Positions 9,877-28,661 of a DNA stretch of 64,000 nucleotides are shown here, one piece after another. The translations under genes were made by a program, and so were the position numbers. Origin of the DNA: a virus; IMG/VR virus record IMGVR_UViG_2711768806_000001. One strand, written 5' to 3'. How positions within the stretch are numbered: position 1 is the first letter of the stretch; each line of letters begins with the position of its first letter. The notes below the pieces were generated by a model. The model was given only the letters and a program-made list of their open reading frames with translations, did not search any database and was not told the origin of the DNA.

Positions 9877-9920
9877 GGTACTGACCCGCGACTTAGTTCC
9901 CCTAGTCGCGGGTCAGTACC
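9877..9920. repeat. Perfect 17-bp inverted repeat between convergent tape measure and endonuclease genes
   Basis: GGTACTGACCCGCGACT / AGTCGCGGGTCAGTACC with 10-nt loop; no clear U-tract. Confidence 0.85.
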
Positions 9921-10879
9921 TCTTCAATCTGCGTGAAGAACCATTGGGTCATTGTGTCCGCTACAACGGGCTTTCGCACCCCTCGCCGAACCATCTCGGC
10001 GTCCCATCGGTCGCGGTACTCGACGAGCCGCGGGCGCTCGGCGGCGAGCCTCGCCTCAACCTCCCGGCGCTTGACGAAGGGGTTGCCCTCGATCCTTCCA
10101 AGAAGGACATTGCAGCCGTTGCAAAGGATGGAGCGCAGGCACTTGCCGCAGGATAGCGTCCCCGGGCAGCAGGCGTGGTCGTGGTCCACGCAGGCTCGCC
10201 TAGTCCCGGGGTCCCCATCCCAACTCAAGGGCTCGGAACAGGCCGCGCAGCGATAGTCCTGTTCCTCCATGAGTGCGTTGAGGGCTTCAGGCCCAACGCC
10301 GTACTTGAACCCGCGATACCGCTCGCGTGACGACTCGGGATCTTCGTGCCACTTGGCGCTTTGGGCCGCCTGTTGGCAGCGCTTGCACCGGGGCTGGTAC
10401 CTGTCCTTGTACCGCGAGAAGCCGGACACCGGCTGCAGGGGCTCGTCACAATCGGGGTTCGTGCACCAGCGCTTACCTTCTTCGACGAACCGTGCGCGAT
10501 GCGCCTTACAGGGGCCGTGGTGCCACGAAGGGTTGTCGCAGCCATCCATTGGACAGACGCCCCCCTTTCGACGCCCCAGGCAATCAAAGCACCACCAACG
10601 CTTGCCCCATGATGAGCCATTCGTGTTAGGAAAGGCGTCCAGGGGCTTGATCGGCTGCTTGCACTCCGGATGCTTGCAATAGCCTGCGCCACTCGCTTCG
10701 AGCTCCTCGCGATGCTGAAGGCAGAAGCTCTTCTTGTGTCGCGCGTTCTCGCAGCCCCTTACCGGGCATGTGGGCACTGGTAGCGTGCCCCGCTTCCTGT
10801 TGCGCGCGTAGCACGCAGCGCAGTATCCCCAGCCGACGATCTTCGTCTTGCTGCAGTCTTCGGTTGCGCAAGTCCTCAA
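9902..10879 (-). CDS. Free-standing endonuclease VII-type (HNH-like) homing endonuclease
   Basis: CAAC...VDHDH.CC...C..C.RSILC..CNVLLG EndoVII signature; repeated Cys-rich N-terminal modules; antisense insertion in tail operon. Confidence 0.85.
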   Translation of the reverse strand: MRTCATEDCSKTKIVGWGYCAACYARNRKRGTLPVPTCPVRGCENARHKKSFCLQHREELEASGAGYCKHPECKQPIKPLDAFPNTNGSSWGKRWWCFDCLGRRKGGVCPMDGCDNPSWHHGPCKAHRARFVEEGKRWCTNPDCDEPLQPVSGFSRYKDRYQPRCKRCQQAAQSAKWHEDPESSRERYRGFKYGVGPEALNALMEEQDYRCAACSEPLSWDGDPGTRRACVDHDHACCPGTLSCGKCLRSILCNGCNVLLGRIEGNPFVKRREVEARLAAERPRLVEYRDRWDAEMVRRGVRKPVVADTMTQWFFTQIEEVLTRD

Positions 10880-11015: not shown

Positions 11016-13004
11016 TTGGAGTCATATCCTCCTACGCCAATAACCAAATACGGAATTCAACTCCTTAAAGAGGGGGTTGAACCGAATATCACCTATACCT
11101 CCCCCGGCGGGGAGATTATCTTCTACCTGAATGGTGGGCTGGCGCCATTCCCCGGGGTTACCGAAGGCATTGCCCTAGAAGAGGGTATTGAGGGCCTTCA
11201 CCCGCTATTCAATCACCTAGATACCAAGGGTGCGAGGCAGGACGGCGCGACGTGGACCGATACGGTTTACGAGCCGGCCGAAATGGTGATGAAGGTTATC
11301 GCCACCGCCCCCACCGCAGAGGGCTTGCGCCGGGTTATCCGCAAATGGATCGCCTCGTGGGACCCGGAGAATCCCGGAAAGCTCACCTGGACCACCCCCG
11401 AGTCGGGGGAGTGGTGGTGCTATCCACGCCTTCACCGCCCGGTTACCGACAAGCTCAACCGCGGCTATGCACGGGACGGTATTCAAAAGTTTAGCAATTG
11501 GTCGATCCGTAATGACGACGCCTTCTGGCGTTCGCACGATTCGGTTTCCCAATTCCAATTCTCTTATCGAATGGCGGTTGACGAGTTCAACCGCGACGAC
11601 GACGGAACCTTGGGCCCCAACTGGGAGCAGACCTATTCCGGTTCCGACGAGGGCGTGTGTGAGACAGAGCCCGCCCTGAACTTCCTGATTCCGGGCCGGG
11701 CCCGATGGACCCCCGCGGGCGAGGAGCAGCGGACGGTCATCAACCGCTGGCTGGGTTCTACCGAGGTGCAGACGGTTGAGGTTCACGGCAGCCCCACAAC
11801 GTGGCGGTTGGGCTTCGGTGGCCAGCCGACTTCGCCGATCTCCCATCCCGCCACCGCGGCGCAGGTGAAGACCGCCCTGGTGGGGCTGGAGAGCATCACC
11901 ACCGATGATGTGACTGTCGAGGGTGAGACTGGCGGCCCCTACACCGTTACGTTCACCGGCCAGTACGCCAAGACGGACGTCCCCCAGATGGAGGCGTCCG
12001 TGGTGAGCGGCGGCACCAACCCGTATGTCACGGTGGCCACCACCTCTACGGGTACGCCCGCCGTCACGGCCACCGACAACCAGGTTATCTCCATTCAATT
12101 GGGCGCATTCTTTATGTTCCCATTCCCGGATGCGGCCTATATCGATATCTGGGGCCGAATGAGCGAAGACAATGAGACGGGTATCCGGTTGAGGATTGGC
12201 CCGCAGTGGATTCGCCTTTCCCGGTTCAATAACGGTGTTGAGACGGTTCTTCGTCAAAGGATTCTGCTTGTCCTCCCCATCTGGGGCGAGACGTGGTCTT
12301 TGGTGTGCGGCTCGGCCAATAACGCCAGACAGTTCACCGTTATGCGAAGCGGCTTCCCCATCCTCTCCTATAAGGAGACTGGTACCGGTTCGGCTTTGGG
12401 CGCGGATTACCGCGGCGTCGGATTCGGTATGGAAGCCGGGGACGGATTCACCCGCCAACTGGTTCCGCCGGCGGTCAACAAGTGGGCTTTCGGCGACAAC
12501 GCCACCCTCACTCAATCGGGGCATCTGGCCCTTACCAACTTCGGCGACCAGCCGGGATTCCCGGATCTGGTGGTGTACGGCCCGGGGACGTTCAAGTTCT
12601 CCGACGGGCCGGGGGCGGAGCCGACGATCGAGTTCGGACCCCTGGCTGATGGACAGGTCGCCCTGATCAAGACCCATCCCGGTCAACGGGCGGTGTATGA
12701 CATCACCACGGATCAGACTGAGCAGGATTTGCCGTTCTTCCAAGATTTCCTGAAGCGGCTTATCAGCCTGGCTTTCAATGGGAATGTCCCGCCTTTGATG
12801 GAGTGGTTCCAAAGCCTTTTCGGCATCGAACCTCCCCAGGGGAATATGTATTCCCTCTTGAAGGGACGGTGGTCTAAACCGGTCCCCCCGAGGACGTTGA
12901 CCGCTTCGCCGGTTACCCACCAGATCGCGGTGGAGATCAAAGACGGCAACGCAAATTCAAAGGTTATCGCGGCACTGACGCCCATGAGGCGCTGGCCCGA
13001 GTAA
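11016..13004 (+). CDS. Minor tail protein (distal tail-like)
   Basis: AGGAGG SD and TTG start; 662 aa; first gene after tape measure/endonuclease. Confidence 0.85.
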   Translation: MESYPPTPITKYGIQLLKEGVEPNITYTSPGGEIIFYLNGGLAPFPGVTEGIALEEGIEGLHPLFNHLDTKGARQDGATWTDTVYEPAEMVMKVIATAPTAEGLRRVIRKWIASWDPENPGKLTWTTPESGEWWCYPRLHRPVTDKLNRGYARDGIQKFSNWSIRNDDAFWRSHDSVSQFQFSYRMAVDEFNRDDDGTLGPNWEQTYSGSDEGVCETEPALNFLIPGRARWTPAGEEQRTVINRWLGSTEVQTVEVHGSPTTWRLGFGGQPTSPISHPATAAQVKTALVGLESITTDDVTVEGETGGPYTVTFTGQYAKTDVPQMEASVVSGGTNPYVTVATTSTGTPAVTATDNQVISIQLGAFFMFPFPDAAYIDIWGRMSEDNETGIRLRIGPQWIRLSRFNNGVETVLRQRILLVLPIWGETWSLVCGSANNARQFTVMRSGFPILSYKETGTGSALGADYRGVGFGMEAGDGFTRQLVPPAVNKWAFGDNATLTQSGHLALTNFGDQPGFPDLVVYGPGTFKFSDGPGAEPTIEFGPLADGQVALIKTHPGQRAVYDITTDQTEQDLPFFQDFLKRLISLAFNGNVPPLMEWFQSLFGIEPPQGNMYSLLKGRWSKPVPPRTLTASPVTHQIAVEIKDGNANSKVIAALTPMRRWPE

Positions 13005-13014
13005 GGAGTTCTGC

Positions 13015-14199
13015 TTGCCCAGAGTTCAGGTCGATCAAGCGACTCTTGATGATCTTAGGGCGAAGCTCTCCCTGGATGCCTACACGGCTGTTGATGCGGC
13101 CCGGATGGCGGCGGAGCTTGAACAGGCCGCCGTCTCCGATACCCGCATTGTCGTGACGGTCTACGACAAGTTCTACAGGCCCGTGGGGGAGTGCGGCGAC
13201 TACATCTCATTGGGGTGCAAGTTCCCGCGCAATAAGGTCGAAACGGGCAACCTCTCCATCAAGAGGTCTGACCCTCTCGCAAATGTCATTCTGCAATGCC
13301 ACGAAACCACCGTGCCGATCACTATCGAGATCGGTCACCTTTTGTGGTCGGGCCAGGTTAAGACCGCCCACGACAACTTCAACCAGCCTGGTACGGCGGA
13401 TTTCGTCGAGTGCGAACTTGAGGGCGATTACGCCTGGCTGATGAAGATCCTCGCGTGGCCGAACTTTCTGCTGCCTTTGCAGGTGCAGTTCCCGCCGCGT
13501 GGCGTGGCAATTGGCCCGGCTGTCTCCATTCTGAAATGGCTCCTGGCCACCCAGGCCTTCCGTATTCAGGCGGGTATGTGGGAGATGGTCAATAACGCCC
13601 TGAGTTTGAATCTCGACTGGCGTTCATGGTTCGGTACGGTTCTCCAGGCTAATCCCGGTAGTGACGGTATTGGTCTGGATGATATCGCCCGCACCCTTCG
13701 CACCCCGATTTACGTGGTGCCCACCAATCCTTTGACGGATACCTCCCCGTTCATTTCGGTCAACTGGCGAATGGACAAGATCGGATCGATCTTTGAAGAG
13801 GTCGTCGAAGATAATGGCTTGCACGTTGAGGTGAAATTGTGGCGGCCGGGCGATCCCCAGCCGGGCAATGATCCCCTTCTGGCCTTGTTCCCATTGACGG
13901 TTCCCACCATTGTCGTGGATATCAAAGACCGCATGGGCATCGTCGGGCCCACCGGGACGTTTATCGACGGCATCCTCCGTGTGGCCGTTGACCTGCAGGA
14001 AGGGCTTTTCGGAGACATCCTGGCCCCGTTCCTGAACCCGAAGGGTGAATACGCCCCGGACGGTTGGAATATCGCCCCGCTATTGGGTATCCATTATGTC
14101 CCTTCTTGGGCGGTATTCAATGCTGACCATCCAAAGGGTGGCGTTTCCGGTCGAATGTCCCATCATAGACCGGAGGCGTGGCGCGTAATTGTAGGCGGT
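13015..14199 (+). CDS. Minor tail protein, exon 1 of intron-split gene (spliced product 577 aa)
   Basis: Ends ...WRVIVGG at the U of the P1 U-G pair; unspliced frame stops at 14232. Confidence 0.85.
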
Positions 14200-14464
14200 T
14201 TGTCGGATGATTTGGCCGCCGCGGCTGCGTAAGTAGCCGCTAGAAAACCTCACCGTATCGGTGAACCCCGCCCAAAAGGGGAATACCGAGGAAACCAGCA
14301 CATTGGGTTCCGTACAGACTAAACGTGAGGCTCCATCTTTGAACCGTTGCGAATGTGTATCGCAACGTGGAGATGGATGAAGTTATAGTCGGGTCTGCAT
14401 CGATGGCAAAGATGCAGAGTCAGGCAGAAATGACCTGGCCCCACGTTCGTGGAGTAACAAACCG
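14200..14464 (+). mobile_element. Group I self-splicing intron, 265 nt, no internal ORF
   Basis: P1 GGCGGU/GCCGCC with U-G; P10 UGAUUU/AAAUCA; P2 with GUAA loop; P3 CCUCAC/GUGAGG; P4 UCGGUG/UACCGA; R CAGACUAAA and S AAGUUAUAGUCGG; terminal G; removal restores frame. Confidence 0.93.
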
Positions 14465-15013
14465 AAATCACCTAAATGGCTTAACGACCTTATTAACGCG
14501 ACTATGGCCTTTATCTTGGACATGGTCCTGATCGTGGTGGGAATTACCGGCGTCCCGAGCAACCTTTTCGACGGGCTGTTCAATGACGTCCTTTTGGCCT
14601 TCCAGCTGGCGGACAACTTCGAGCGGCGCATGAAAATGGGCCCCTACGGCCACGCCGAGGTCTTCGTTCCCACCAACAAGGCCCCCTATACCATCGACGG
14701 CATTTTCGCCCTCAAGCGGGAAATGTGGAACACCAGAGGCTATATTTCTGGCGAGGTCACATTCAAGAATGGCCTGCCTTACGAGATTGGTAGGGATATC
14801 TTCCCGGGGTCTTTGGCGACCCTGATCCGCGATGGAAAAGTCTACACCGACTGGGTGGAGAACATTGCCGTTGTGGATACCCGCGACGGCCGCTCCGAAG
14901 TCGTGGTTCAGATTGGCGACGGCAAGGCTGAAGAGGCCTCGGTCGTGAAACTCCAAAGAAAGCTTTCGAAGCTTCAAGAGGCCTTCAACATCATCACGAT
15001 GGCCACTCAATAA
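14465..15013 (+). CDS. Minor tail protein, exon 2 of intron-split gene
   Basis: KSPKWLNDLINATMAF... in frame with exon 1 after excision. Confidence 0.85.
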   Translation, partial: KSPKWLNDLINATMAFILDMVLIVVGITGVPSNLFDGLFNDVLLAFQLADNFERRMKMGPYGHAEVFVPTNKAPYTIDGIFALKREMWNTRGYISGEVTFKNGLPYEIGRDIFPGSLATLIRDGKVYTDWVENIAVVDTRDGRSEVVVQIGDGKAEEASVVKLQRKLSKLQEAFNIITMATQ

Positions 15014-26851: not shown

Positions 26852-28281
26852 CAACTCGACTCAATGTAGAGTTCGCTAAAAAAATCCTCGTCGACCGCAT
26901 CGGAAACAATTACGTTTACGGCGGAAACTGGGACCCCTTCAATCTAAAGAAGGGTACAGACTGCTCAGGTCTCGTTATTGACATCTGCGACGCCGTCCGG
27001 AACGGCACCAAGATGGCGTGGTCCCGTCACGGGATGTCCACCGAGACGTGGCGCCCCCCGTCGATGGGCGGCCGCGCCAACCCCGTCAACGGCCCATTCG
27101 GCACGGTGATGGTCAATCACCCCTCCCAATTCCCGGACAACGCCATCGTTAAGATCGCTATCCACCACGGGCCCGGAGGCGGGGCAAACTCCCACACTTG
27201 GTGCTCTGTCGATGGGATGCGGGGAGAGTCCGCGGGCAGCAAGGGCTGCGTAACGGGCTCGGCCGCGCGCGACCCCTACGACACATCGTATGCCAACAAC
27301 TGGTGGTACCTCCCCGGCCCAATCGTCGAAGACGGCAGCCCCATCCCGGAGGACCCCAACGCGGTCACCTGGGGTATCGACATCTCCAATCACCAGGGCG
27401 AGATGGACCTTAACCGCGTCAAGGCGGAGGGGTTCGATTTCATCTGGTGCAAGGTGTCGGAGGGCGCGAACTACCGCGACCCGTTCTGGCCGGGTAACCG
27501 GGATAAGGCCCGCGCCGCCGGCCTGATCCTGGCGGGCTATCACTACGTCCGCACGGGGGACCCTGCCGCTCAGGCAAAAACCTTCGTGGAGCACCTGGGG
27601 GATAAGTCCATCCCCGCCATGTTGGATTTTGAGGACGGCTCGGGGAACATCGAGCAGTTCTGGGCGGTCAAGGCCGAGATTGAAAAGCTCGGCGTCCAGG
27701 TCCGCCTGTCCTACATTCCTGACTGGTACTGGGAGCGCATCGGAAAGCCGGACCTGTCCAAGGTCCCCGGTCTGATCTCGTCCGAATACGTCAGCGGAAC
27801 CGGATACGCATCGGTGCTATATCCGGGTAATTCAAGCAACTTCTGGAAAGCGTACGGCGGCCGGACGCCCGACGTCCTGCAATTCACCGACAGGGCCCTT
27901 GTGGCTGGCAAGTCGGTCGACGCTAACGCTTTCCGGGGAACACCAGACAAACTGCGCCGACTTTTGGGCGCGGGAGGAGATGACTTCTTGTCCGCATTGA
28001 GCGATGCAGAACAGCGGCTGCTCTTTGATCGCACCAACCAAGTATGGGGCGCCCTCTTTAATCCCGTCGGTTCGGAATCGAAATACAAGGCCGAGGGCGA
28101 GGGCCTGATCTATAAGACCAAGGACATGGTCCGGTTCATCGACAAGAACGTCCACGAGATGCTTGTCGAGCGCCAGGCCATGATGGGGAATCCTGAGGCT
28201 ATCGCCCTCGTCCGCCGAGAGGCAAATAAGGGCGATAAGTGGGCCAAGGTAGTCCTCGACTACATCGAAAGCGAGGGCTAA
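26848..28281 (+). CDS. lysA: Lysin A (N-terminal peptidase-like domain plus GH25 muramidase)
   Basis: GTDCSGLV...HTW peptidase-like region; WGIDISNHQG GH25 start; LDFED motif. Confidence 0.9.
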   Translation: MTTRLNVEFAKKILVDRIGNNYVYGGNWDPFNLKKGTDCSGLVIDICDAVRNGTKMAWSRHGMSTETWRPPSMGGRANPVNGPFGTVMVNHPSQFPDNAIVKIAIHHGPGGGANSHTWCSVDGMRGESAGSKGCVTGSAARDPYDTSYANNWWYLPGPIVEDGSPIPEDPNAVTWGIDISNHQGEMDLNRVKAEGFDFIWCKVSEGANYRDPFWPGNRDKARAAGLILAGYHYVRTGDPAAQAKTFVEHLGDKSIPAMLDFEDGSGNIEQFWAVKAEIEKLGVQVRLSYIPDWYWERIGKPDLSKVPGLISSEYVSGTGYASVLYPGNSSNFWKAYGGRTPDVLQFTDRALVAGKSVDANAFRGTPDKLRRLLGAGGDDFLSALSDAEQRLLFDRTNQVWGALFNPVGSESKYKAEGEGLIYKTKDMVRFIDKNVHEMLVERQAMMGNPEAIALVRREANKGDKWAKVVLDYIESEG

Positions 28282-28661
28282 TGCCCGCTGATATCGACGT
28301 CAAAAACCAGATCGACGGGGAGTTCGCCGACGGCTCTCCCCGTCCGTGGGCTTGGGTTAAAGTAAGGGCCCGCACCGTCCTCGGGAGCCTGAAGGCCAAG
28401 CCCTTCGCCCGGGATATCGCCGGCAAGCCGGTGGCCTCTACGCCTTCGGCGCTGGATCACATCATCGGCGCTTCCGAGCAGACCTCGTGGAGGTATGTCG
28501 CCTCGGACGGCAACGTCTACGACCTCAAGGACGCCTGCCTTATCGCCATTGAACTCCTGCTAGACAGCGTTCCCCCGGGGAAACTCGCGGAATACCGCAA
28601 CAAGGCATCCCAGCTGCGCCCCTGGCCCGCGGGCTACGCAGGCAGGCCTGATTTCGAGTGA
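28281..28661 (+). CDS. Hypothetical protein between lysA and lysB
   Basis: TAATG and GTGA overlaps. Confidence 0.7.
   Translation: MPADIDVKNQIDGEFADGSPRPWAWVKVRARTVLGSLKAKPFARDIAGKPVASTPSALDHIIGASEQTSWRYVASDGNVYDLKDACLIAIELLLDSVPPGKLAEYRNKASQLRPWPAGYAGRPDFE

Follow-up and report, generated by a model that had tools for sequence, protein, structure and literature searches.

Background

The psbA intron of cyanophage S-PM2 and the introns of Staphylococcus phage Twort are phage group I introns that lack an open reading frame (ORF) of their own; in T4 and Twort, subgroup IA is common. The element described here is alike in kind to those of S-PM2 and Twort, being a small ribozyme without a homing endonuclease gene in an essential, conserved phage gene, but it occupies a different host gene and its phage has a high-GC actinobacterium as host.

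The closest described system is found in mycobacteriophages of cluster J. Pope et al. (2013; PLoS One 8:e69273, PMC3706429) reported that BAKA and Optimus carry an extra 265 bp that gene 33 of Thibault lacks, placed the BAKA intron at coordinates 28,186-28,450, with exon 1 ending in U and the intron ending in G, and found by RT-PCR on infected cells that the RNA product was shorter than the DNA product. The same authors related the BAKA intron to the 5' part of the capsid intron of LittleE, whose splicing they established by RT-PCR and N-terminal protein sequencing (PMC3706429). A 2025 paper (PMC11855218) cites the BAKA intron (TTGT...ACCG), terms it "unorthodox" and states that MFannot recognises the element as derived from group I.

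Here, we analyse a stretch of viral DNA of 64,000 nucleotides (IMG/VR record IMGVR_UViG_2711768806_000001; hereafter the window), in which positions 14200-14464 interrupt a minor tail gene. We conclude, with a probability of about 0.96, that this segment is a 265-nt group I intron without an ORF, located in a tail gene of the Sipho_Gp37 family, and that it is the same element as that of BAKA gp34.

Results

Upon comparing the tail locus (query 13015-15013) with deposited phage genomes by megablast, we found matches to cluster J (Omegavirus) mycobacteriophages only, and the window is a phage of this cluster. Among the matches listed, 24 records align over the full 1999 nt with 97.8-99.5% identity, the closest being Klein, Halley and JuicyJay (99.5%), while six records from five phages (Dove, Schatzie, Bombitas, Kalah2 and Thibault) align in two pieces that total 1734 nt, which is 265 nt fewer. 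Dove gp34 and Thibault gp33 are each a single uninterrupted gene of 1734 nt. The preliminary description of this DNA, made from the letters alone, had proposed an alignment to intron-less cluster J alleles as a check, and when this was carried out with Dove and Thibault, the extra 265 nt fell at exactly 14200-14464, the boundary being unambiguous against Dove (GGCGGT/AAATCG, where the slash marks the junction). The intron is also absent from Omega, LittleE and Lucky2013.

The two ORFs that flank the insert (Table 1) lie in different frames, and the ORF list holds no credible gene between them. When 13015-14199 is joined to 14465-15013, the result is 1734 nt that comprise 577 codons and a stop, with the junction reading RVIVGG/KSPKWLND. 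The spliced product shares 99.5% identity with Dove gp34, all differences lying away from the junction, and 98.8% with Thibault gp33. The Pfam family PF14594 (Sipho_Gp37) spans the intron-less Dove protein (92.8 bits, profile positions 2-370, above the gathering score), and the two halves in the window match complementary parts of the same profile, namely positions 2-201 in the 5' half and 265-370 in the 3' half. Together, the ORFs at 13015-14232 and at 14504-15013 make up a single minor tail gene of the Sipho_Gp37 type, each representing one half. This had been claimed in the preliminary description, together with an in-frame join of VIVGG to KSPKWLND in a protein of 577 aa, and both points are borne out, the former by the single genes of Dove and Thibault and the Pfam domain across the junction, and the latter by the codon count and the identity to Dove gp34. 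Mass spectrometry of virions has identified a homologue of the 577-aa protein, Omega gp36, as a structural component (Pope et al. 2013, Table 3, PMC3706429).

In the neighbourhood of this gene, the upstream minor tail protein of 662 aa (11016-13004) shows a DUF7257 match and a weak Sipho_tail (RIFT) match and probably represents the distal tail protein; the name "tail sheath" that RefSeq gives to its homologue in BAKA seems misplaced in a siphovirus. Across the 64-kb window, ARAGORN called neither tRNA nor tmRNA genes.

Table 1. Coordinates of the tail gene, its intron and the neighbouring endonuclease gene, in window positions; shortened numbers share the leading digits of the preceding one.
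Feature	Position	Strand	Size or sequence	Basis or remark
ORF, 5' half	13015-14232	+	405 aa	ORF list
ORF, 3' half	14504-15013	+	169 aa	ORF list
Exon 1, minor tail gene	13015-14199	+	395 codons	ORF list, intron-less alleles, Pfam Sipho_Gp37 positions 2-201
Exon 2, minor tail gene	14465-15013	+	182 codons + stop	Alleles, Pfam Sipho_Gp37 positions 265-370
Group I intron, without own ORF	14200-14464	+	265 nt	Alleles, Rfam, fold, covariation, BAKA RT-PCR (PMC3706429)
5' splice site	U14199	+		Last base of exon 1
P1	14194-14199 with 14215-14220	+	GGCGGU with GCCGCC	Includes the U14199·G14215 wobble
P10	14208-14213 with 14465-14470	+	Guide UGAUUU with AAAUCA	Pairs with the start of exon 2
P2	14221-28/33-40	+	8-bp stem	GUAA tetraloop
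In-frame stop	14230-14232	+	TAA	In the L2 GUAA tetraloop, 10 codons into the intron; sequence reading
P3	14248-53/14325-30	+	CCUCAC with GUGAGG	
P4	14258-63/84-89	+		
P5	14266-69/78-81	+		
P6	14290-92/14309-11	+		
P6a	14295-97/14304-06	+		
P7	14315-20 with 14387-91	+	CAGACU with AGUCG	A14316 bulged
P8	14332-39/70-77	+		
P8a	14345-52/60-67	+		
P9	14394-14401/11-18	+		
P9.1	14421-24/34-37	+		
P9.2	14441-44/49-52	+	12-nt hairpin	
Terminal G (omega-G)	G14464	+		3' end fixed by alignment to intron-less alleles
Endonuclease_7 gene (PF02945), free-standing	9902-10879	-		Between the tape measure gene and the first minor tail gene

The offset between the window and BAKA is constant at 13,986 (27001 in BAKA against 13015 here), so that BAKA 28,186-28,450 corresponds to window 14200-14464. 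The two introns are identical at 264 of 265 positions, the sole difference being C14407 (T in BAKA) in loop L9, and 10 other deposited cluster J records carry an intron that is 100% identical to that of the window. The BAKA record gives gp34 as a joined CDS and remarks that it "contains possible group 1 intron". The gene, the insertion site, the length and the ends (TTGT...ACCG) are shared with the introns of BAKA gp34 and Optimus gp35, whereas the L9 base differs from BAKA and the surrounding gene is 98.6% identical to it, and the window is therefore a different cluster J isolate. The intron is already known and is the published BAKA gp34 element. The preliminary description had pointed to reported tail-gene splicing in BAKA as a possible match, and this is borne out by the equivalent coordinates and the RT-PCR result of Pope et al. 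(2013).

Next, we investigated the structure of the insert. The minimum free energy (MFE) fold of 14190-14475 reaches -113.2 kcal/mol (z = -5.8, with none of 200 shuffles equally stable), and unaided it yields P1, P2, P3, P4, P5, P6/P6a, P8/P8a, P9, P9.1 and P9.2. The pairings proposed earlier for P1, P10, P3 and P7 and the terminal G14464 hold base by base, and the P4, P8 and P9 hairpins were all located and are contained in the MFE fold. An Infernal-type scan with group I models had also been suggested; upon aligning a 501-nt stretch to RF00028, the whole model was covered with a score of 28.5 bits (E-value 2.2e-5), which lies under the gathering score of 50, and a scan of the whole window against Rfam at that gathering threshold (50 bits) returned zero matches. 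The LittleE intron, which is spliced by experiment, itself reaches just 30.7 bits with RF00028, and for this reason the gathering cut-off is too high for this intron lineage, which is a statistical limit of one mixed model and not a biological feature. The window intron does not look like subgroup IA, as its modelled structure contains no P7.1/P7.2 between the 3' strand of P3 and P8; it also contains no P5abc extension.

The relatives of the intron provide comparative evidence for this structure. A search with the intron alone recovered the capsid-gene intron of LittleE (91% identity across positions 16-242), and further relatives were collected by exact-pattern scans with the core motif over uncultured viral and metagenome contigs, after which base-pair changes were counted over seven related introns. 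Compensatory changes were observed in six of the eight pairs of P2, two pairs of P3 and seven of the eight pairs of P8a, as well as in each of P6a, P8 and P9.1. P1 shows one compensatory pair, from C-G to U-A, that tracks the change of the exon from GGCGGU to GGUGGU in the capsid-gene relatives, and its U·G wobble is unchanged in all seven introns. P4, P6, P7 and P9 do not vary among the seven, and for P4 and P7 the support thus consists of conservation and of the match to the Rfam consensus AGACUA...UAUAGUC. Loop L2 is kept as GNRA despite a wholly different P2 stem (GCGA in contig L007), and each of the seven sequences carries an in-frame TAA within P2/L2.

The P10 guide is distinct in each of four exon contexts and nonetheless complementary to the 3' exon in every one, reading UGAUUU/AAAUCA in the window, GCGUA/UACGC in LittleE, AAGUA/UACUU in L007 and GAAGUG/UACUUC in L010. 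The introns of L013, L016, LittleE, L007 and L010 likewise end in G. These comparisons indicate that the secondary structure is well supported by comparative evidence, beyond thermodynamics alone. Taken with the z-score of the fold and the E-value of RF00028, the compensatory changes in relatives confirm an RNA element far beyond chance.

Upon closer examination, the relatives fall in two genes. Two contigs, L013 (CXWK01095678.1, 269 nt) and L016 (FRDC01003289.1, 264 nt), carry ORF-less introns in the tail gene at the same site as the window (VIIGG/KSP); their exon DNA is 69-72% identical to that of the window and their introns are about 88% identical, and no ORF is inserted among the tail genes in the 9.2 kb of L016 that we examined. 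The introns of L007, L012 and L015 (887 nt) and those of L010 and L014 (818 nt) lie in the capsid gene, at the same GG/Y site as the LittleE intron (808 nt), and in the L007 and L010 groups and LittleE an antisense LAGLIDADG_3 ORF replaces the short P9.2 hairpin of the window. The LittleE gp13 major capsid intron is alike in its homologous ribozyme, its P2-P9.1 architecture and its 3' tail motif GAGUAACAA...G; it differs in its host gene, in its retargeted P1 and P10 guides (GCCACC and GCGUA) and in its length, which is due to the antisense LAGLIDADG_3 ORF. An exact-pattern scan of species genome contigs with the core motif found no prophage copy of the intron.

As a separate observation on the capsid-intron family, its members at L007:8875-9761, L010 (minus strand), L014 and L005:1186-1993 share a conserved GG/Y(A/F)VPPLW site. 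They are situated in HK97-like capsid genes on actinophage-like contigs, with the LAGLIDADG_3 ORF on the opposite strand within P9.2.

Discussion

Removal of the 265 nt at the RNA level in infected cells has been shown for BAKA (PMC3706429), and for the window phage the evidence for splicing is its near-identity to that intron, from which one of 265 bases differs. Together with the structure and the alleles, the BAKA RT-PCR supports the earlier claim that a group I intron without an ORF interrupts a minor tail gene. From the pairings, splicing would follow the two-step, guanosine-initiated transesterification, guided by P1 and P10. The late transcript of the tail gene would fold so that GGCGGU of exon 1 pairs with the internal guide GCCGCC in P1, so that the U14199·G14215 wobble marks the 5' splice site. 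Free guanosine, docked in the P7 pocket (G14317-C14390, beside the bulged A14316), would attack after U14199, G14464 would next take over the pocket, and exon 2, aligned by P10 (UGAUUU with AAAUCA), would be ligated to exon 1, yielding the mRNA for the 577-aa virion tail protein. On unspliced RNA, the TAA in L2 may, judging from its position, halt ribosomes ahead of the ribozyme core. In the literature surveyed we found no report of GTP-dependent self-splicing of this intron in vitro, and a search for RNA data sets that contain 13700-15000 listed none.

Several fungal and phage group I introns need a protein to fold. It is conceivable that the segment is spliced as RNA but is not autocatalytic in vivo, with a phage or host protein, such as a maturase or an RNA chaperone, being required for folding. 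The published proof is in vivo RT-PCR only (PMC3706429), agreement with the Rfam consensus is weak at 28.5 bits and the intron has been termed "unorthodox" (PMC11855218), all of which would suit such a dependence. We nevertheless consider it unlikely, in view of a core that is complete and stable (MFE -113 kcal/mol, z = -5.8), the presence of the peripheral helices P2, P9.1 and P9.2, a GNRA L2 that is kept even in L007, and an intron that is without any ORF that could encode a maturase.

Two further explanations dispense with RNA splicing. That the locus holds two minor tail genes, each translated on its own, and that the structured stretch between them is an intergenic spacer would agree with the two minor tail proteins listed for Halley, JuicyJay, Dallas, Beem and others, and with the PHROGs families phrog_20512 and phrog_18875, each of which matches one half; it is very improbable given that close relatives have a single 577-aa gene minus exactly 265 nt, that one Pfam domain extends across both halves, that inspection of the region upstream of ATG 14504, which many records take as the start of a second gene, found no Shine-Dalgarno-like sequence, and that the BAKA RNA is spliced (PMC3706429). 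A bypass at the level of protein or translation, by an intein or by ribosome hopping, is less probable still and close to negligible: inteins are also present in cluster J genomes (Pope et al. 2013, PMC3706429), but the BAKA RT-PCR product from RNA is shorter than that from DNA (PMC3706429), and an intein is impossible here because an in-frame TAA lies 10 codons into the insert, whose length of 265 nt is not divisible by three. Based on the stop codon, the length, the single-gene alleles and the BAKA cDNA, we reject the intein, ribosome hopping and two separate genes, and retain the group I intron.

The locus is chiefly a matter of annotation. Although the intron and its RT-PCR evidence have been in print since 2013, the matches listed include nine cluster J records that contain the intron (Halley, JuicyJay, Dallas, Beem, EricMillard, HokkenD, Pound, Yeet and NihilNomen) and have the exons annotated as separate minor tail proteins in GenBank. 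The remaining intron-bearing records listed show one minor tail protein at the locus, with BAKA having the joined CDS. The families phrog_20512 and phrog_18875 probably derive from such split annotation, and automated pipelines will go on splitting the gene because the Rfam gathering threshold misses the intron. Biologically, introns are few both in genes for virion structural proteins and in phages with high-GC hosts, and this element is one of them; it makes a tail protein that is produced late in infection dependent on RNA splicing. Beyond the work of Pope et al. (2013), the new relatives enabled a secondary structure backed by covariation, which is absent from the original paper, and they show that the uncultured phages L013 and L016 carry the same intron, likewise without an ORF, at this position of the tail gene.

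With regard to its origin, we tentatively consider that the tail intron is an endonuclease-less offshoot of the LAGLIDADG-bearing capsid introns that moved to the GGCGGU site of the tail gene and remains mobile although it encodes no nuclease itself, a scenario that is possible but to which we give somewhat less than even odds. The P1 target of the L007 capsid intron is GGCGGU, identical to that of the tail intron, and this shared target suggests a route of movement between the two genes. The distribution is patchy, since the intron occupies the identical site in the distant L013 and L016 and is absent from the closer Dove, Thibault, Omega and LittleE. Such a pattern fits gain and loss, as far as these sequences can tell, and is no proof of current mobility, because the constraint on the ribozyme also slows the divergence of the intron. 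If the offshoot scenario is true, the intron could spread via reverse splicing, recombination in co-infection, or a nuclease acting in trans.

A candidate for such a nuclease, the free-standing Endonuclease_7 gene of the window, was considered and its link to the tail intron was rejected. By megablast, it occurs in five phages (seven records) only, namely Bobby, JuicyJay, Pound, Optimus and the intron-less Thibault, and is thus missing from most intron-bearing phages and present in one that lacks the intron. Its presence and absence are uncorrelated with the intron, which is still compatible with action in trans.

Finally, we report an unannotated group I intron at L006:1254-1541, in Lysinibacillus phage vB_LfM_LysYB1 (OP628075.1), which scores 58.2 bits with RF00028, above the gathering score. 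It is positioned at the 3' end of the major capsid protein CDS, the last bases of which it overlaps, with an HNH-like pseudogene feature downstream, and it is probably another capsid-gene intron, in a phage of the Herelleviridae.
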